From NCBI GenBank assembly GCA_905206805.1, contig CAJLIR010000006.1, forward strand, positions 2,999-66,998: DNA of 64,000 bases. The letters run 5' to 3'. Source of the stretch: an uncultured Bacillales bacterium. Lineage in GTDB: Bacteria > Bacillota_I > Bacilli_A > RF39 > UBA660. The notes beneath the pieces are model-generated. The model did not search any database, had not been told where the DNA came from, and saw only the letters and a list, made by a program, of their open reading frames with translations. Shown here in pieces: positions 3,338 through 12,773 of this stretch. How positions within the stretch are numbered: the first letter of the stretch is position 1; every line of letters starts with the position of its first letter. A program made the translations under genes and the position numbers.

Positions 3338-4315
3338 ATGGGTTTTTTTGATAAATTAAAAAATGTCTTTAAAGGGCAAAGTGTAGAAGAAAAAAAAGTA
3401 ACTGATTTATATGAATCAGGATTAGAAAAAACTAGGGAAGACTTTATATTTAAGTTAAATAGTTTGAACAAAAAGTATAAAAAAGTTAGTAATGAATATT
3501 TTGAAGAATTAGAAGAAATATTAATAATGGCTGATATTGGTGTAAATACGGTTATGAATTTTGTTGATAAATTGAAAAAAAGAGTTAAATCAGAAAATAT
3601 TTTAAATGTAGAAGATTTAAAAGAAATAATTGTCGATGAAATGTTTATAATATATGTTAACAATGAAGTTATTGTTAATAAGATTAAATACGCTAAAGAA
3701 GGCCCTACAGTAATATTATTTGTAGGTGTAAACGGTGTTGGAAAGACAACTACTATTGGTAAATTAGCAAGTAAATTAAAAAATAGTGGGAAAAGTGTTT
3801 TAATGATTGCAGGTGATACCTTTAGAGCAGGTGCGGTAGAACAAATAGAAGAGTGGTCAAGCCGTGTCGGTTGTGAGGTCGTTTTTAAGGAAAATGCAGA
3901 TCCTGCCAGTGTTATTTATGACGGAGTAACGAAAGCAAAAATGGAAAATATTGATGTTGTATTAGTGGATACTGCAGGAAGGCTTCAAAATAAAACAAAC
4001 CTTATGAATGAACTTAGTAAAATTAATAAAGTAATAGGTAATATTATTCCTGATGCTCCTCATGAAACGTTACTTGTTATCGATGCTACTACAGGTCAAA
4101 ATGGAATTAGTCAGGCTAAGAGTTTTAAAGAAATTACTAATATAACTGGTATAGTACTTACAAAACTTGATGGAACTGCTAAGGGCGGAATTGTTTTGGC
4201 TATAAAAGACGAGGTAAATTTACCAGTAAAATATGTTGGTCTTGGTGAAGGCGTTAACGACTTACAGGTTTTTGATATTGAAAAATATATATATGGATTA
4301 TTTAGAGATTGGTAG
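3338..4315 (+). CDS. ftsY: signal recognition particle receptor FtsY
   Basis: GVNGVGKTTTIGKLA P-loop, DTAGR, TKLDGTAKGG SRP-GTPase motifs; NG-domain-only form of about 325 aa as in Bacillus. Confidence 0.92.
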   Translation: MGFFDKLKNVFKGQSVEEKKVTDLYESGLEKTREDFIFKLNSLNKKYKKVSNEYFEELEEILIMADIGVNTVMNFVDKLKKRVKSENILNVEDLKEIIVDEMFIIYVNNEVIVNKIKYAKEGPTVILFVGVNGVGKTTTIGKLASKLKNSGKSVLMIAGDTFRAGAVEQIEEWSSRVGCEVVFKENADPASVIYDGVTKAKMENIDVVLVDTAGRLQNKTNLMNELSKINKVIGNIIPDAPHETLLVIDATTGQNGISQAKSFKEITNITGIVLTKLDGTAKGGIVLAIKDEVNLPVKYVGLGEGVNDLQVFDIEKYIYGLFRDW

Positions 4316-4322
4316 TGATAGT

Positions 4323-4619
4323 ATGAATAGTAATTTAGAACCTTTAAAAAATAATAAAAAAGATGAACAAAAAATTAGCTTAAAACGTGTTCAAGAAATA
4401 GCACTTTTAGGACAGGCAATAACTATATTAGCAATAATTGCGTCCTTTATAATGTCTAGATATGTTGCTGAATTAACAATTTTAGTAAACATTTATTTGG
4501 TAATTTTATCATTTGTTATGGCTTATACTAGTTATTCAGTTTACAAAAGAAAAGGTATGAGTATTGTTTATATCGTATTTGGAATTATGATTTTACTAAG
4601 TATATTAGTGGGTATTTAA
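4323..4619 (+). CDS. small hydrophobic membrane protein; start uncertain (track ORF begins at 4233, overlapping ftsY)
   Basis: Two predicted TM helices. The first ATG after the ftsY stop is at 4323. No such gene is expected between ftsY and ylxM. Confidence 0.3.
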   Translation: MNSNLEPLKNNKKDEQKISLKRVQEIALLGQAITILAIIASFIMSRYVAELTILVNIYLVILSFVMAYTSYSVYKRKGMSIVYIVFGIMILLSILVGI

Positions 4620-4909
4620 TGGAAGAACAAATTTTATTAACAAACTTATATGATTATTATAAAGAATTATTAACTAATAAACAGCAAAATTATTTTGAAG
4701 AATATTATTTTAATAATTTGTCATTATCAGAAATTAGTGAAAATTATAATGTAAGTCGTAATGCAGTCCATAAACAATTAAAAGAAATATCTTCTAAATT
4801 GTTAGAATATGAAGAAAAATTAAAATTATTGAATAAATCAAAAAAAATAAAAAAATTAATAGAAAATATTGATGAAAAATTAAAAAAAGAAATAGAAAGT
4901 TTAATATAA
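4619..4909 (+). CDS. ylxM: YlxM (UPF0122) putative HTH protein of the ffh operon
   Basis: 96 aa; close resemblance to B. subtilis YlxM (LTNLYDYYKELLTNKQQNYFEEYYFNNLSLSEISENYNVSRNAVHKQLKE... versus [42 protein letters not shown]...). Confidence 0.85.
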   Translation: MEEQILLTNLYDYYKELLTNKQQNYFEEYYFNNLSLSEISENYNVSRNAVHKQLKEISSKLLEYEEKLKLLNKSKKIKKLIENIDEKLKKEIESLI

Positions 4910-4922
4910 AAAGGGTGTTAAA

Positions 4923-6677
4923 ATGTTTGGAAAAATTATATATATAAGTGATAATGTAGCGCATATTGAAATTCCAGAAGGAACTCCAATTGCTGAAAAT
5001 TTAATGAATATGCATGTTATTTTCGAAGATGAAAAAAAGAAAATATTAGGTGAAATTGAGGATATAAGCGAAAAAATCATTAAAGTAGGATTTTTGGGTG
5101 AAATAGTAAATGGTAGATTTGTTGGTGGTGTCATTAGAAAACCAACTTTATCGGCAAGAATTAGAATTATAACAAAGGAAGAATTAGCTTTAATTATTGG
5201 TGAAGATACCCCAGGAAGTATGATATTAGGTAATTCTCCATTATATGATGACTGTCAAATAAGAGTTGATATTAACGATTTATTTAGTAATCATATGGCA
5301 ATATTCGGAAATACTGGTAGTGGTAAATCTTGTGGTGTTGCAAGACTTTTACAAAATGTATTTAATAATCCTAATTTTTTGCCATATAAATCTAATTTCT
5401 TTATTTTTGATGCATATGGAGAATATCATAATGCATTTAAAGATATTAATAAAATAAATCCTAATTTACATTTTAAATATTATACAACTAATAAAACAGA
5501 AGCTGGAGAACAAAAATTAAAAATACCTTTATGGCTTTTAAATGTGGATGACTTAGCTTTATTACTTGAAGCAAGTAGTCACTCACAACTAACAATTATT
5601 GAAAAAATGTTAAAATTAGTTAAAATATTTTCACAATCAGACGAACAGTCTATTAAGTATCGTAATCATTTAATTGCAAAAGCTATTATGAATATTTTAT
5701 ATACAAATCAAACTTCTCCAAGTAAGAGAAATGACATTTTTTCTATATTAGCAACTTGTTCAACAGAACAATTTAACTTAGAAGCTCCAGTTCAAGGTAT
5801 AGGTTATGTTAGAAAATTTCGTGAATGTTTTACAATGAATAAAGATGGACAATTTACTGAAAGTATATTAGTAACAGAATATATTAGTAGTTTTATTGAT
5901 GAAGAACTTGAAAAATATGAACCAGTTAAACCTACATTCTATACATTAGAAGATATGGAAAAAGCTATGAATTTTACGCTTATTTCAGAAGGCCTTTTAA
6001 AGAATGAAAAAATGTATGATGAAGCAATTATGTTAAAGGTTAGATTACACGCTTTAGTTATAGGAGAGAATTCTGAGTATTTCAAAATGGATAGATATAT
6101 GACAGTGGAACAATACATTTCTTCGCTAGTTGCTTGTCCAGATGGAAGAAAGGCTCAAATAATTAACTTTAACTTAGAAGATATTGATGATTCTTTTGCA
6201 AAAAGTGTTACAAAAATCTATACAAGAATGTTATTTGATTTTACGAAAAGATTGAATGTCAGAGCTTCAATACCATTTCATATATTCCTAGAAGAAGCTC
6301 ATAGATATGTTCAAAATGATAATGATAAATTTTTACTTGGTTATAATATTTTTGATCGTGTTGCAAAAGAAGGAAGAAAATATGGTCTTATATTTAATTT
6401 AATTTCACAAAGACCAGTAGAAATTTCTGAAACTGTTATTTCACAATGCTCTAATTTTATAATCTTCAAAATGAACCATCCTCGTGATTTGGAGTATATT
6501 AAAAAAATGTTACCAAATATTAGTGCAGAGGTTGTTGAAAAACAAAAGAGTTTACAACCAGGTACATGTGTAGCATTTGGAAAAGCATTTAAAATTCCAA
6601 TGATTATAAAAATGCAGATGCCAAATCCTGAACCACATAGTTCAAACTGTGATGTTGTTGCAAGATGGGTTAATTAA
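4923..6677 (+). CDS. HerA-like ATPase (FtsK/HerA superfamily, DUF87-type) with an N-terminal HAS-barrel-like domain
   Basis: 584 aa; Walker A IFGNTGSGKS; Walker B / catalytic FLEEAHRY; C-terminal ISQRP...QCSNFIIFKMNHPRD, characteristic of HerA/DUF87; N-terminal beta-rich region consistent with a HAS barrel. Confidence 0.75.
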   Translation: MFGKIIYISDNVAHIEIPEGTPIAENLMNMHVIFEDEKKKILGEIEDISEKIIKVGFLGEIVNGRFVGGVIRKPTLSARIRIITKEELALIIGEDTPGSMILGNSPLYDDCQIRVDINDLFSNHMAIFGNTGSGKSCGVARLLQNVFNNPNFLPYKSNFFIFDAYGEYHNAFKDINKINPNLHFKYYTTNKTEAGEQKLKIPLWLLNVDDLALLLEASSHSQLTIIEKMLKLVKIFSQSDEQSIKYRNHLIAKAIMNILYTNQTSPSKRNDIFSILATCSTEQFNLEAPVQGIGYVRKFRECFTMNKDGQFTESILVTEYISSFIDEELEKYEPVKPTFYTLEDMEKAMNFTLISEGLLKNEKMYDEAIMLKVRLHALVIGENSEYFKMDRYMTVEQYISSLVACPDGRKAQIINFNLEDIDDSFAKSVTKIYTRMLFDFTKRLNVRASIPFHIFLEEAHRYVQNDNDKFLLGYNIFDRVAKEGRKYGLIFNLISQRPVEISETVISQCSNFIIFKMNHPRDLEYIKKMLPNISAEVVEKQKSLQPGTCVAFGKAFKIPMIIKMQMPNPEPHSSNCDVVARWVN

Positions 6678-7438
6678 TGAACGATAAATTATTGATACAT
6701 ATTCCTCATTCTAGTTTAAATTTTCCTAAGTTATTTTTGACTCGTGTTAATGATTTAGAAAAAGTTAACTCTGAAAATATTTTTATATCAGATTATTTGA
6801 TTGACCAATTTATACCAAATGATGATGTAAATATTATTAAATTTAATTATTCTAGATTATTTTGTGATGTAGAAAGATTTAAAAATGATTCAGATGAACC
6901 TATGTCAAAATATGGCATGGGTTCTGTTTATTACTTAGATTCTAATGGTTATAAGTTTATTGATTATGATGAAGTTTATAAAAGAGAGGTTATTTGTAAC
7001 TATTATGATAATCATCATAAAAAATTAGATAGTATGGTTACTGATATTTTAAATAAAAATAATATTTGCTATATTTTGGATTTACATAGTTTTTCTGATT
7101 TGTTTGTTAATAAAATGTTTAATTATAATGATACTCCAGATATATGTATTGGTGTTGAGGATGGAAAAACTGATTTAGAATTACTTAATATAACTATTAA
7201 TCACTTTAAGGAATTCAATTATTCGGTTAAAATTAATTTTCCATATAAAGGTAGCATAATACCTAATAAATATTATTCAGCGAATGATAATAGAATAAAA
7301 ACAATGATGATAGAGATAAATAAAAGAATATATTTAGAAAATAATTGTGTACCTGATAAGAAAAAATATAAAAAATTAAAAAAATGTATGAATTTATATT
7401 ATATAAAATTAAATGATTATTTACAAAAAAATAAATAG
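6677..7438 (+). CDS. N-formylglutamate amidohydrolase (FGase)-family zinc hydrolase-like protein
   Basis: 253 aa; N-terminal HIPHSS, SRLFCDVERF (compare the family SR..D.NR motif), YILDLHSF (compare the DLHS motif), NFPYKG; translationally coupled to the HerA-like gene (TAATG overlap). Confidence 0.55.
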   Translation: MNDKLLIHIPHSSLNFPKLFLTRVNDLEKVNSENIFISDYLIDQFIPNDDVNIIKFNYSRLFCDVERFKNDSDEPMSKYGMGSVYYLDSNGYKFIDYDEVYKREVICNYYDNHHKKLDSMVTDILNKNNICYILDLHSFSDLFVNKMFNYNDTPDICIGVEDGKTDLELLNITINHFKEFNYSVKINFPYKGSIIPNKYYSANDNRIKTMMIEINKRIYLENNCVPDKKKYKKLKKCMNLYYIKLNDYLQKNK

Positions 7439-7482
7439 TTCAAAATTCTATATTGTTTCATATACTATATACGAGGTGTTAT

Positions 7483-7929
7483 ATGAAATACAGAGAAATT
7501 TTAAATAAAATATATTCTAATTATAAAAAAAATGATAAGTTTGATTTAAATAGTTTTATAAAATTTTACAAAGAAAATAATACTAAAATTGTTAAGTTTA
7601 AAATGTTTGACAATATAGATGGTATTATTGTTGACCAAAATCATTTAATATTTATATATTTTAAAGATAAAGAGTCGATGGTTTTTAGTAAAGCACATAT
7701 TGTATTTGATAGTAGAGCTATAATATATAATTGTGTATTAAATAATGGTGATATTGAATATCAAGAAACTATTGGAAGAGATTTTAGAAAAAGAGAGGAT
7801 ATTTATAACTTTAATGATATAGATATTGTAATTAATGATAATTTGCTTGATGAAGAATTTGAACATACAATAGAGAATATTGAATACTTAAGTTATCAAA
7901 AAAATAAACAAAAAAGGCTTAAAATATAG
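7483..7929 (+). CDS. hypothetical protein (148 aa), third gene of the inserted cassette
   Basis: ORF with a GAGGTG RBS and start at 7483 (track ORF starts at 7453); no recognisable domain. Confidence 0.5.
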   Translation: MKYREILNKIYSNYKKNDKFDLNSFIKFYKENNTKIVKFKMFDNIDGIIVDQNHLIFIYFKDKESMVFSKAHIVFDSRAIIYNCVLNNGDIEYQETIGRDFRKREDIYNFNDIDIVINDNLLDEEFEHTIENIEYLSYQKNKQKRLKI

Positions 7930-7973
7930 TCTTTTTTTTAATTTTATTATATAATTTAAAAAGGTGATTATAA

Positions 7974-9281
7974 ATGTTTGAAAATTTAGGAGATAGATTA
8001 CAAAACGCTATTAATAAAATAAAGGGTTATGGGAAAATAACTGAAGAAAATATTAGTGAAGTTACAAGAGAAATAAGACTTGCATTATTAGAGGCTGATG
8101 TTAATTATAAAGTTGTAAAAGAATTTATAAATAATGTTAAAGAAAAAGCATTAGGTGAAGAAGTTCAGAAAAGTTTAAGACCTAGTGAATTATTTGTTAA
8201 AATTGTAAAAGATGAATTAGTTGATTTATTAGGTGGTAATTCAGAACCAATTAATACTACTGGTAATCCCGCTATATTAATGCTTGTGGGATTACAAGGA
8301 AGTGGTAAAACTACTACTATAGCAAAATTAGCCAATTTTTTAAGAAAAAAATACAATAAAAAACCATTACTTGTAGCATGTGATGTATATAGACCTGCCG
8401 CAATTGATCAATTAAAGCAACTTGGTAGAGAACTTAATATTGAAGTATATTCAGAAGGAAAGGAAGATCCCGTAAAAATTTCGAGTAATGCTGTTAACTA
8501 TGCTAAAGAAAATGGTTTTAATTATGTTTTAGTAGATACTGCAGGTAGATTACATATTGATGAATTGTTAATGCAAGAACTTGAAAATATTACAAATAGT
8601 ATTAATCCTCAAGAAACAATTTTAGTAATTGATAGTATGATGGGACAAGATGCTATAAATGTAATTGAAGGTTTTAATTCAAAATTAAAATTAACAGGAG
8701 CAATTTTAACAAAATTAGATGGAGATACTAGGGGTGGGGTTGCCTTATCGGTAAGACACTTGACTAATGTTCCAATTAAATTTATTGGTATTAGTGAAAA
8801 AATGGATGGATTAGAAGAATTTCATCCTGATAGAATGGCTACTCGTATTCTTGGTATGGGCGATTTAATGACTATGATTGAAAAGGCTGAATCTGTTATT
8901 GATCAAGACGAAGTTATGAATACAGCTAAAAAAATGCAAAAGGGAAATTTTGATTTAGAAGATTTCTTAAGTCAATTAAAACAAATAAAAAAAATGGGCC
9001 CACTTGAAAATTTAATAAAGTTAATTCCTGGTGCTAAAAAAATGGGATTAAATAATGTTCAAATTAATCCTAAGGATATGGCTCATTTAGAAGCAATAAT
9101 TTTATCTATGACACCTAAGGAAAGAAAGCATCCTGAAATAATTAAGGCAAGTAGAAAAATTAGAATTGCTAAAGGTTCAGGTAGAAGTGTTGAGGAAGTA
9201 AATAGGCTTTTAAAGCAATTTGAACAAATGAAAACTATGATGAAACAATTTAAAAATGGAAATTTTAAAATGCCATTTTAG
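7974..9281 (+). CDS. ffh: signal recognition particle protein Ffh
   Basis: GLQGSGKTTT P-loop, DTAGR, TKLDGDTRGG; C-terminal Met-rich M domain (MKTMMKQF). Confidence 0.93.
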   Translation: MFENLGDRLQNAINKIKGYGKITEENISEVTREIRLALLEADVNYKVVKEFINNVKEKALGEEVQKSLRPSELFVKIVKDELVDLLGGNSEPINTTGNPAILMLVGLQGSGKTTTIAKLANFLRKKYNKKPLLVACDVYRPAAIDQLKQLGRELNIEVYSEGKEDPVKISSNAVNYAKENGFNYVLVDTAGRLHIDELLMQELENITNSINPQETILVIDSMMGQDAINVIEGFNSKLKLTGAILTKLDGDTRGGVALSVRHLTNVPIKFIGISEKMDGLEEFHPDRMATRILGMGDLMTMIEKAESVIDQDEVMNTAKKMQKGNFDLEDFLSQLKQIKKMGPLENLIKLIPGAKKMGLNNVQINPKDMAHLEAIILSMTPKERKHPEIIKASRKIRIAKGSGRSVEEVNRLLKQFEQMKTMMKQFKNGNFKMPF

Positions 9282-9285
9282 AAAA

Positions 9286-9320
9286 AGATTAAATGAAAAT
9301 TTCATTTAATCTTTTTATTT
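9286..9320 (+). terminator. rho-independent terminator after ffh
   Basis: Perfect 13-bp stem AGATTAAATGAAA / TTTCATTTAATCT followed by TTTTATTT. Confidence 0.7.
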
Positions 9321-9500
9321 ATATTGATTACTTATTGATTTATAAACATCGGTTATATTAGTAATGTGTTTATATCATTTATGTAATTTTTTATAAAATT
9401 AATGCTTTTTATATATTTTTTATAATAAATAAAATTAACAAGGCAAATCACATATTCAAAAAAATTCAATCGACATATCATAAAGTAGATAAGGGGGAAT

Positions 9501-9854
9501 ATGTTCATGTTATTTAATAAAAGATGTTGTGGAGCAATGCCACAATTTGGTTGTGCACCAATAATGCCACAAGATAACTGTTGTGACGGAGGTAATTTTG
9601 CTCAAGGAGCAATGCCACAATCAGATAGATGTTGTCAAAATATGAACCAAACAAGAGAACAATGTATAGTAGAACCAACTATTAATAAATGTATTGAAAA
9701 AGAATTTTATCATGAAGTACCACATGTATGTCCAATACATACACATGTAATAAATCGTCATATATATAATCATAGCTATACACCACAATACACTTGTTCA
9801 GAAGAAAACCAAGTTTGCAATATTGACAACGGACCATGTTGCAAATTTGTCTAA
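9501..9854 (+). CDS. cysteine/histidine-rich small protein, possibly a CotD-like inner spore coat protein
   Basis: 117 aa with 16 Cys; the segment HEVPHVCPIHTHVINRHIYNHSYTPQY resembles the H/P/T-rich repeats of CotD-type coat proteins; AGGGGG RBS. Confidence 0.4.
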   Translation: MFMLFNKRCCGAMPQFGCAPIMPQDNCCDGGNFAQGAMPQSDRCCQNMNQTREQCIVEPTINKCIEKEFYHEVPHVCPIHTHVINRHIYNHSYTPQYTCSEENQVCNIDNGPCCKFV

Positions 9855-9925
9855 AGAATAGTCTACTATTCTTTTTTTTCTTGCTAAAAATAAATAATTT
9901 GATTATACTAGTAACAGGTGATGTT

Positions 9926-10555
9926 ATGAAAAAAGTATTATTAAAATGTATTTTTATAATAATAATTTTGGTTGGTTATATTATTTTGAATGAAAATATA
10001 CATGAAAAAAACTATGTCAATGAAATTGTATTAGAAAGTGATTCTATTACTAGTTATGATTGGGAATGTATAGTTAATGATGAATTTTTGAATATTTCAA
10101 AAGAAGAAAAAAATGGAAAATATATATTTAAACTATCTGCTAAAAAGAGTGGAATAACAGAAGTTCAATGTGTATATAGTTCTTCATTAAATAATAATGA
10201 TAGTGATGTTGTAAAAGTATATAGTGTTCAGATTGATTCAAGAAAAAAAATTACTATTAATGATCCAAAGGACTATAAAGAATTCAAATTTGATACAGCA
10301 TATGGCAATGTAAAAATTGTTGCTAATAATGCGTTAACTGCTACAGGATTTGCTGGTTCTAGTAATACTATTTTTTATTTAAAGGATAATAATTTATATT
10401 TATATGTCAATAATGGTGATGATGATTTATTGGCAGTTGGTGTAGATAAAATGTATTATGAAAATAACAATTCTCAAGTAATTACTGTGAAATTAAATAA
10501 AAATTCAAATATTATTAAGAATTTGCCTTACATAAATTATGTATATGATAATTAA
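9926..10555 (+). CDS. hypothetical secreted / membrane-anchored protein
   Basis: N-terminal hydrophobic signal-anchor (MKKVLLKCIFIIIILVGYIIL); start chosen at the ATG following an AGGTGATG RBS. Confidence 0.5.
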   Translation: MKKVLLKCIFIIIILVGYIILNENIHEKNYVNEIVLESDSITSYDWECIVNDEFLNISKEEKNGKYIFKLSAKKSGITEVQCVYSSSLNNNDSDVVKVYSVQIDSRKKITINDPKDYKEFKFDTAYGNVKIVANNALTATGFAGSSNTIFYLKDNNLYLYVNNGDDDLLAVGVDKMYYENNNSQVITVKLNKNSNIIKNLPYINYVYDN

Positions 10556-11318: not shown

Positions 11319-12156
11319 AGTAAGATGGTTTATTAATTTCAAATGTAAGAATTTTTTTACTATTTGGATCTAGAATAATAAGTTTATTTGCATGTAAGCA
11401 AAAATAATTTGATTTGAAGTTTTTATCTCCATATTTTTTGTCACCAACAATACTATTACCAATACTTTGCATAGCAACACGAATTTGATTTTTTCTGCCT
11501 GTTTTAATTTCGATATCTAAAAGTGAATAATTTTGATTTGATTTGATAACTTTGTAGCAAGTTATAGCTTTTTTCCCTGTATTATTTTTTGTTGCAAAAA
11601 CATATAAATTGTCAGTTTCTTTTAAATACTGAATAATTGTGTCACTGCTTTTTTTAGGAATACCTTCTACAATAGCTTGATATCCTCTATATTTAACTAA
11701 TGAGTCCCAATTATTTTGGTATATACTTTGAATTTTTGTACTTTTAGCAAACATTACTATTCCAGATGTTTCCCTATCAAGTCTATGAATAACAAAAACT
11801 TTAGAATTTTTGTTATTTTTTTTTAAATATTCACTAACTAAATGATATAGTGTTTTTTCCTTTTCTTTATTTGTACTAATTGTAAGTAAATTAGATGGTT
11901 TATTAACTACGATTATGTTTTTATCTTCGTAAATTATTTCTATATTGTCATTTATTTTTGAATTAAAATTATTAATTGTAATAGAATCATTACATTTTAA
12001 ATTGTAATTATATTGTGTTATCTTTTTATTATTAACAAGTATTTGATTATTTGCTAATTTCTTTTTAGCTTCTTTATGAGAATATTTTAATTCTTCTATT
12101 AAGTAATTTATTAAAATTGTATCTTTATTTACTATATAATTTTTCATATTTAACAC
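11299..12156 (-). CDS. RluA-family 23S rRNA pseudouridine synthase (RluC/RluD-like, with N-terminal S4 domain)
   Basis: HRLDRETSGIVMFAKS catalytic motif (HRLDxxTSG); N-terminal S4-like region. Confidence 0.85.
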   Translation of the reverse strand: MLNMKNYIVNKDTILINYLIEELKYSHKEAKKKLANNQILVNNKKITQYNYNLKCNDSITINNFNSKINDNIEIIYEDKNIIVVNKPSNLLTISTNKEKEKTLYHLVSEYLKKNNKNSKVFVIHRLDRETSGIVMFAKSTKIQSIYQNNWDSLVKYRGYQAIVEGIPKKSSDTIIQYLKETDNLYVFATKNNTGKKAITCYKVIKSNQNYSLLDIEIKTGRKNQIRVAMQSIGNSIVGDKKYGDKNFKSNYFCLHANKLIILDPNSKKILTFEINKPSYFNNFVH

Positions 12157-12188
12157 CCAAAATAATAATACACTATAATTTAAAAATT

Positions 12189-12773
12189 TTAAATATTATT
12201 TTCTAAATATTCTTCTAAAGTTAAATTATTTTTAGTTATTTCTAAAGCAATTTTTCCTACATATCTATAATGCCATGGTTCATATTTAAATCCAGTTATA
12301 TTTTGTTTATCAGAGGGATATCTTAATATAAAACCATAATTAGGAGCATTTTTTATCATCCAAGAAAATTCCTTTGTATTACTAAAATTATTGTAGTCGC
12401 CCTCTGAACCTCTTACATCAACTGCAAGTCCTGTTTGATGTTCAGAGTGTCCTGGTTTAGCAGAACAGGCGTTAGCATATTCACTACCATATTTTAATAC
12501 ATAATTGTCGTATAATTTTTTTTGATATTCAAAACTTCTATATGTTGATTCTGCTTTTATACTTAAATTTAATTTTTTAGCATTCTTACATAATTTTTCA
12601 AAGCATTCTTTAGCTTCATTTCTTAAATATTTAGTATCAACAGAATATAATTCATTAATTTTTTCTAAATTGCTAGGTATAAATTTTTGATACAACATAT
12701 TATTTTTATTTACAAGTACTAATAAATCATCAGGATTTTCAATTAATTTTATATTTTTATAAAAATCATTCAT
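12189..12773 (-). CDS. D-alanyl-D-alanine carboxypeptidase, peptidase M15B (VanY-like)
   Basis: SEHQTGLAVDV (SxHxxGxAxD) and EPWHYRYVG motifs typical of VanY / M15 zinc D,D-carboxypeptidases. Confidence 0.8.
   Translation of the reverse strand: MNDFYKNIKLIENPDDLLVLVNKNNMLYQKFIPSNLEKINELYSVDTKYLRNEAKECFEKLCKNAKKLNLSIKAESTYRSFEYQKKLYDNYVLKYGSEYANACSAKPGHSEHQTGLAVDVRGSEGDYNNFSNTKEFSWMIKNAPNYGFILRYPSDKQNITGFKYEPWHYRYVGKIALEITKNNLTLEEYLENNI

Follow-up and report, generated by a model that had tools for sequence, protein, structure and literature searches.

In bacteria, HerA is currently discussed almost only as the motor of two-gene anti-phage systems, SIR2-HerA (Nezha) and DUF4297-HerA, while its archaeal and Deinococcus relatives are known from HerA-NurA end resection. 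DUF4297-HerA is an ATP-driven ring translocase, and characterised HerA proteins all act on DNA (PMC11291478). The HerA-family ATPase described here is encoded in a stretch of 64,000 nucleotides (nt) from an uncultured Bacillales bacterium (contig CAJLIR010000006.1 of assembly GCA_905206805.1; this whole 64-kb stretch is hereafter the window, and all positions are in its coordinates). It appears to represent the opposite case: a solitary, vertically inherited protein, more conserved than Ffh or FtsY, whose gene stands in the signal recognition particle (SRP) operon of dozens of species from an abundant gut lineage. The interval that holds herA, from ylxM to ffh, probably combines three genes that differ in age; this is a statement of evolutionary anatomy, and the function of HerA is proposed with less confidence.

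In Bacillus subtilis, ylxM directly precedes ffh. In the window, three tightly packed genes separate the two, as an initial annotation of this DNA had reported with an open reading frame (ORF) layout, coordinates and spacing that agree with the present ones; it had taken them for an acquired insertion. They belong to a string of seven head-to-tail genes on the + strand (ftsY, a small membrane ORF that the initial annotation overlooked, ylxM, herA, an FGase-family amidohydrolase gene, orf148 and ffh), the features of which are as follows (aa, amino acids):

3338 to 4315, + strand: ftsY, SRP receptor (PF00448, E=6.5e-77; PF02881), first gene of the putative operon.
4293 to 4619, + strand: small membrane ORF of 108 aa with three hydrophobic stretches, overlapping the 3' end of ftsY and the start of ylxM.
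4619 to 4909, + strand: ylxM, UPF0122 helix-turn-helix protein (PF04297 over its full length, E=4.2e-26).
4923 to 6677, + strand: herA, ATPase of the HerA family (FtsK-HerA superfamily), 584 aa (PF01935, E=5.9e-23).
6677 to 7438, + strand: FGase-family amidohydrolase gene (hereafter FGase), 253 aa (PF05013 over its full length, E=3.1e-34).
6678 to 7416, no strand: variable slot without homology to the sister species (blastn against L096).
7483 to 7929, + strand: orf148, orphan of 148 aa without a family match, directly upstream of ffh.
7974 to 9281, + strand: ffh, SRP54 homologue (PF02881, SRP54_N; PF00448, SRP54; PF02978, SRP_SPB), last gene of the putative operon.

Eighty loci from species-level relatives were gathered with an Ffh query (76-84% identity) and the window proteins were mapped onto them; 62 loci had enough upstream sequence to be informative. 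herA is found upstream of ffh in 37 of the 62 species loci, 35 of which preserve the order ylxM-herA-...-ffh (the remaining two contigs end before ylxM), and ffh is dissociated, with unrelated genes upstream, in another 24. The arrangement that had been presumed normal, with ylxM abutting ffh, occurs at a single informative locus (L059). Across species the apparent gap between herA and ffh ranges from 31 bp to 7.5 kb; because 16 of these gaps turn out to encode part of HerA, a low-complexity C-terminal tail of 85-386 aa, HerA directly precedes ffh (under ~130 bp) in roughly 28 of the 37 species. On its other side, herA begins 13 nt past the ylxM stop codon in the window and 11-31 nt after ylxM in many species, and the block of ftsY, the small membrane ORF, ylxM and herA is intact despite relocation of ffh in L097 (HerA 88% identical), L098 (HerA 79% identical) and L066.

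The distance matrices of HerA and FtsY over 34 species are correlated (Mantel r=0.71, with 0 of 2000 permutations as high) about as tightly as those of FtsY and Ffh (r=0.75), the identity across relatives being 62-84% for FtsY and 76-89% for Ffh. From the synteny in relatives and the co-divergence with FtsY, herA thus appears to be a vertically inherited, lineage-typical member of the SRP gene string. The initial annotation had itself named the presence of the same three genes in close relatives as the observation that would argue against an insertion, and the survey made this observation for herA, shared by 35 species, so that herA is evidently not an acquired insert; orf148 is shared by the sister species, and FGase by none.

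The C-terminal tails of HerA occur in one clade of relatives (L060, L070, L072, L079, L082, L087 and 10 more loci; representatives P0241, P0242 and P0248), and the HerA of the window has none. They contain repeated short motifs (P-x-L-[VI]-x-[FIL] and NPALDFG), and in seven loci they end in an acidic stretch (e.g., LDDDxDD..DF) loosely resembling acidic partner-binding tails. One relative (L065) has two tandem herA genes (6405-8156 and 8179-9927 of that locus) between ylxM and ffh. Representative P0248 has a degenerate Walker A motif (GNDGFGKS) and a degenerate Walker B motif (IDNAH), which suggests an inactivated paralogue.

Comparison with the sister species (L096, GCA_022800535.1), the reference for identity and for the ratio of nonsynonymous to synonymous substitution rates (dN/dS), gives approximate ratios that rank herA (95% aa identity, dN/dS 0.036) before the genes of RNase J (rnj, 94%, 0.042), ylxM (76%, 0.051), ftsY (84%, 0.058) and ffh (89%, 0.067), with orf148 far behind (42%, 0.585). 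The value for herA is the lowest among twelve neighbourhood genes examined, and no other gene of the operon is as well conserved between the sister species. Over 34 species, 126 of the 584 residues of HerA are invariant, and so are its motifs: Walker A (GNTGSGKS, G129-S136, residues 129-136), Walker B (EExHR, here EEAHR, residues 457-461, with invariant E457, E458, H460 and R461), KEGRK (482-486) and QRP (496-498). This conservation profile is that of an active enzyme apparently under strong purifying selection, stronger, to judge from these ratios, than that on the SRP genes themselves.

By its ATPase domain (PF01935, DUF87/HerA, 82.6 bits versus a cut-off of 23.2), its Walker A and B motifs and a region of the arginine-finger type, the protein is assigned to the HerA family, and it matches the PADLOC HerA profile PDLC04102 (E=5e-116). 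It widely misses every NCBIfam HerA equivalog, both the anti-phage models (NF042944, 180 versus 850 bits; NF042943, 171 versus 800 bits) and the repair models (NF040937, 118 versus 800 bits; NF040819, 94 versus 970 bits). The nearest sequence in the PDB is 9c1m, the HerA of HerA-DUF4297 (E=2.9e-47). An AlphaFold2 (AF2) monomer model built on 50 homologues (pLDDT 83, pTM 0.80) has a beta-rich region at residues 1-116, a RecA core and helices at ~208-403, and its full-length Foldseek matches are SIR2/HerA, DUF4297-HerA and HerA-NurA structures (TM 0.58-0.73). The model thus predicts a complete HerA fold consisting of an N-terminal HAS barrel, a RecA-like core and a helical bundle, and by analogy with characterised HerA the protein would be an ATP-driven hexameric ring translocase.

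Neither the window interval nor ~60 related contexts contain a SIR2, DUF4297 or NurA gene, and neither mre11 nor rad50 was found beside herA in any context examined. HerA is placed outside the known defence and repair systems because it has no SIR2, DUF4297 or NurA partner gene. Its homologues on plasmids are ~30% identical, and the best of them (L099) is encoded directly downstream of a SIR2 gene. In a library of representatives at 50% identity, about a dozen full-length clusters are >38% identical to HerA; a metagenome scan with one representative (P0499) returned 15 loci, and a scan with another (P0252) returned no matches. Two more distant clades (38-45% identity) have herA as a solitary chromosomal gene among housekeeping genes. 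One of these, a clade of Bacilli, has at eight loci (L101, L103 and L107-L112) the string PrsA-like rotamase (- strand), herA (+), rpmB (-) and dnaE (+), with about 370-440 nt of non-coding DNA upstream of herA. At L103, ffh lies 4 kb downstream of herA, and at L115, herA lies 3.6 kb from rnj-ftsY-ylxM. Sequence comparison thus indicates a HerA subfamily of low-GC Bacilli that has no partner gene and keeps a stable place on the chromosome. A role as substitute for a missing FtsK is unsupported, as at least one genome with a related HerA (L102) encodes FtsK nearby. No paper was found that links HerA with ylxM.

The gene behind herA has a different history. Its ATG overlaps the TAA of herA in the stop-start sequence TAATG at 6677 (...GTTAATTAATGAAC...), as the initial annotation had pointed out. 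A blastn comparison of the window with L096 yields two homology blocks only, 4004-6677 and 7417-9280, so that homology is lost precisely with the stop codon of herA and is regained ~65 nt before orf148. In L096, the place of FGase, bounded by the stop of herA and the leader of orf148, is taken exactly by a PD-(D/E)XK_2 (Rpn/transposase-like) gene, which has its own promoter-like site and is preceded by a hairpin and T-run. Occupants of the slot in other species include ldh, GDPD with a DUF5698-like ORF, fmt, an AAA_14/DUF4143 ATPase, a glycosyltransferase and orphan genes. The site just 3' of the herA stop appears to be a recurrent, rearrangement-prone breakpoint. Genes for PD-(D/E)XK_2 / HTH_Rpn_C (Rpn-like, transposase-like) proteins are multi-copy in these genomes (L096, 6756-7776; L023, 7076-7891; L001, 1460-2350); in two other species (L096 and L023) such a gene is found in the slot behind herA, so that genes of this kind may drive the local rearrangements.

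FGase itself (PF05013, 119.5 bits versus a cut-off of 28.9) is absent from the slot in all other species examined. Its homologues (50-58% identity) are common in related metagenome-assembled genomes, where they stand alone in unrelated contexts, none of the three contexts examined having a DUF87 neighbour; this led to rejection of HerA-FGase as a recurrent two-gene module, and no paper was found that pairs HerA with formylglutamate amidohydrolase. In five of ten conspecific contigs (L001, L005, L007, L008 and L009; the L001 copy is at 11755-12233), FGase is a pseudogene, with a ~322-bp internal deletion (about 6934-7255) at short TTAC/ATAC microhomology and a 1-nt frameshift, while the flanking genes, including herA, are intact. 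The left breakpoint of the deletion lies just 3' of a hairpin with a 12-bp stem (6896-6924), which is the sole + strand hairpin of the interval and lies within the FGase coding sequence. Since half of the sampled conspecific contigs have the deleted pseudogene, FGase is evidently dispensable; it has the appearance of a recent, decaying passenger rather than an effector of HerA, and its source was most likely the same genome or a related Bacilli lineage.

The third gene, orf148, does exist as the initial annotation had it, with a start that was placed ~30 nt too early: ATG 7483, which gives 148 aa, is the most likely start and TTG 7453 the less likely. ATG 7483 has a ribosome-binding site (GAGGTG) 7 nt in front of it, and independent gene callers used this start on ten conspecific contigs. 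No match was found in Pfam, NCBIfam, PADLOC or PHROGs, and a single-sequence AF2 model (pLDDT 44) was too poor for a fold search. The ortholog in L096 (42% identity) occupies the same position without FGase. Within the species, orf148 is the most variable gene (dN/dS 0.44). These comparisons point to a genus-level, fast-evolving small protein. The small ORFs downstream of other FGase genes and in the slot of L023 were considered as kin of orf148 and proved unrelated. FGase (6980-7010) and orf148 (7789-7819) have in common a direct repeat of 31 nt with 27 identical positions, which may be due to chance in AT-rich DNA.

Because no intrinsic-terminator-like sites were found on the + strand between the seven genes and promoter-like matches are at chance level (69 observed versus 58.8 +/- 7.9 expected), the layout is consistent with a single transcription unit, in which the genes would be co-transcribed. 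Composition gives no sign of foreign origin in any of them: the GC content of the window is very low (24.9%), and that at third codon positions is uniform over the seven genes (about 0.07-0.17; 0.12-0.13 in the three genes between ylxM and ffh, FGase being at 0.13). No paralogues of the three genes between ylxM and ffh occur elsewhere in the window. An Rfam scan of the whole window found no family at gathering score (no tRNA, riboswitch, SRP RNA or other), and therefore no RNA element appears to be involved.

herA is not the only non-canonical gene in the SRP string; the 108-aa membrane ORF is another. It was called as a gene on ten conspecific contigs, shares 64% identity with its counterpart in the sister species (L096) and 43% with that in L097, and has a weak match to DUF6442 (E=1.3e-3) that falls under the cut-off. 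Beyond ffh there is a gap of 220 nt and then, instead of rpsP, a Cys/His-rich ORF of 117 aa (9501-9854, + strand) with a sub-threshold match to the CotD spore coat protein (E=4e-4, 21.2 versus 22 bits), homologues of which are found near ffh in many relatives. SpoVS and SpoVIF domains on related contigs also hint at spore formation.

Several explanations of the locus other than an ancestral, solitary HerA were weighed. It may be read as an anti-phage locus with HerA as its motor or sensor and an exchangeable effector in the slot behind, FGase here and a PD-(D/E)XK nuclease in the sister species, in parallel with SIR2-HerA and DUF4297-HerA. The strength of the PADLOC match, the nearest solved structures (all defence HerAs), the SIR2 gene beside plasmid homologues, the overlap of the herA stop with the FGase start, the PD-(D/E)XK_2 genes in the slots of L096 and L023 and the variability of the slot as such, which exchangeable effectors would be expected to produce, are all in keeping with that reading. 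It is nevertheless unlikely, given that the slot is empty in ~28 of 37 species, where herA is followed immediately by ffh, and that other occupants of the slot (ldh, fmt, GDPD with the DUF5698-like ORF) are plainly housekeeping genes. Known systems have the effector upstream of herA, where these genomes have ylxM. The PD-(D/E)XK_2 gene of L096 is parted from herA by the hairpin, T-run and separate promoter-like site, and such genes are multi-copy in these genomes; FGase homologues were never beside DUF87 in the contexts examined, and half of the conspecific contigs have lost FGase and kept HerA intact. Vertical inheritance with a dN/dS of 0.036 is atypical of defence genes, and the cut-offs of the NCBIfam anti-phage equivalogs are widely missed. 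A mobile three-gene cassette, recently acquired and riding on a constitutive SRP operon, is most improbable, and for herA it is refuted: 35 species have HerA at this position, and its divergence follows that of FtsY. The sister species, for its part, has orf148 but no FGase. Presence/absence polymorphism among close relatives is seen for FGase and not for herA. Such a cassette could be imagined from the direct succession of ylxM and ffh in B. subtilis (the textbook order) and in the relative L059, from the tight packing of the three genes and from the apparently recent gain of FGase, but no flanking repeats or terminal inverted repeats delimit it. The att-like or target repeats that the initial annotation had proposed to look for at 4909-4923 and 7929-7974 amount to short imperfect AT-rich matches (for instance I2, 75% over 28 nt). 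The window interval contains no integrase, transposase or recombinase, the transposase-like PD-(D/E)XK_2 gene being in the slot of the sister species and not in that of the window, and the composition of the genes does not deviate.

The persistence of herA with ftsY, the small membrane ORF and ylxM even after relocation of ffh may also be taken to mean that HerA is tied to protein targeting or secretion, as an ATPase accessory to the SRP/YlxM pathway whose place would be due to selection for co-expression and not to inherited synteny. The FtsK-HerA superfamily does include ATPases of protein export (EssC, VirB4/VirD4); in the distant clade, herA is beside the PrsA-like rotamase gene at eight loci, and ffh or ftsY-ylxM is within 4-5 kb of herA in L103 and L115. 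However, HerA has no transmembrane segment or secretion-related domain, the distant clade also places herA beside dnaE, recX and rpmB, which may be conserved core synteny, and herA has other contexts in L100 and L102. All characterised HerA proteins, moreover, act on DNA (PMC11291478), and a role in targeting seems improbable.

The explanation preferred here is that HerA is a long-standing member of the string ftsY-small membrane ORF-ylxM-herA-ffh in very low-GC, small-genome, uncultured gut Bacilli, where its housekeeping task would be that of a hexameric translocase driven by ATP, with nucleic acid as the most probable substrate; through its operon position it would be expressed with the SRP genes. 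In different species, unrelated genes appear to have landed at the breakpoint behind the herA stop. In the window this gene is FGase, which probably derives from another part of the genome or a related lineage of Bacilli and became fused to the herA stop as TAATG; orf148 is the genus-level, rapidly diverging small protein at the ffh side of the slot. The interval is accordingly neither a three-gene cassette nor an accessory module. Of the insertion proposed initially, the part that concerns FGase holds, as a recent and decaying arrival; for herA, which is lineage-typical, and for orf148, a genus-level resident, the proposal fails, and what had been taken for an insertion is mostly the ancestral arrangement. 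With respect to the original question the result is corrective, the supposed accessory module in the SRP operon being largely explained away.

Several points weigh against this explanation. Synonymous divergence between the sister species is ~1, near saturation, which is what makes the dN/dS values approximate, and the ten conspecific contigs were retrieved by the exact HerA sequence and are therefore uninformative on polymorphism of HerA within the species. For the 24 species with dissociated ffh, retention of ylxM-herA elsewhere was confirmed in three cases (L066, L097 and L098). In sequence as well as fold, the characterised proteins nearest to this HerA are all anti-phage components, and the HerA sequence is compatible with a defence role; the stop-start overlap of herA and FGase would suit a functional pair; and the proposed housekeeping role is drawn from conservation and context. 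What stands, as far as sequences can establish it, is a HerA subfamily that is solitary and highly conserved and has a fixed place within the SRP operon of an abundant, uncultured gut lineage. A bolder, doubtful suggestion is that the partner-less motor is an indispensable core gene, held in the SRP operon through work with YlxM/FtsY that would add a new accessory step, powered by ATP, to co-translational targeting or the biogenesis of membrane proteins, or else a domesticated defence motor turned housekeeping factor. In practice, a match to a HerA profile without a partner gene, as obtained in PADLOC-type scans, should not be called a defence system, and the subfamily offers a conserved gene of interest for testing in reduced-genome Bacilli.

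Compared with known systems, the locus combines familiar components in an unfamiliar order. FGase resembles HutG in its full-length match to PF05013 and a weak match to PDB 2q7s. It is not a HutG equivalog, because its score with TIGR02017 is 37 against a cut-off of 278.75 bits; in addition, Pfam annotation over ~5 kb on the upstream side and 17 kb on the downstream side shows no hut genes, and neither hutH, hutU nor hutI is found beside three of its homologues. The SRP genes have the same order and orientation as in B. subtilis (ftsY...ylxM...ffh), tightly packed and probably co-transcribed, but unlike B. subtilis the window has the small membrane ORF between ftsY and ylxM, has herA, FGase and orf148 between ylxM and ffh, and continues after ffh with the Cys/His-rich 117-aa ORF rather than rpsP.

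HerA itself shares fold and motifs with the archaeal and Deinococcus HerA of HerA-NurA end resection (PDB 4d2i and 9x1l-9x1p), and would share with it a housekeeping rather than a defence role, but differs in having no adjacent NurA, Mre11 or Rad50 and in missing the repair equivalogs. To SIR2-HerA (Nezha) and DUF4297-HerA it is related by the same full-length fold (Foldseek E ~1e-26, TM 0.6-0.7), its best PDB match (9c1m), the strong PADLOC match and intact Walker A/B and arginine-finger-type motifs, at only about 20-30% identity. Those systems have their effector gene directly upstream and co-oriented, as in the canonical pair on the L099 plasmid, whereas the HerA of the window has no SIR2 or DUF4297 gene nearby; and, unlike them, it appears to have a fixed chromosomal place in a housekeeping operon, with vertical inheritance and a very low dN/dS.

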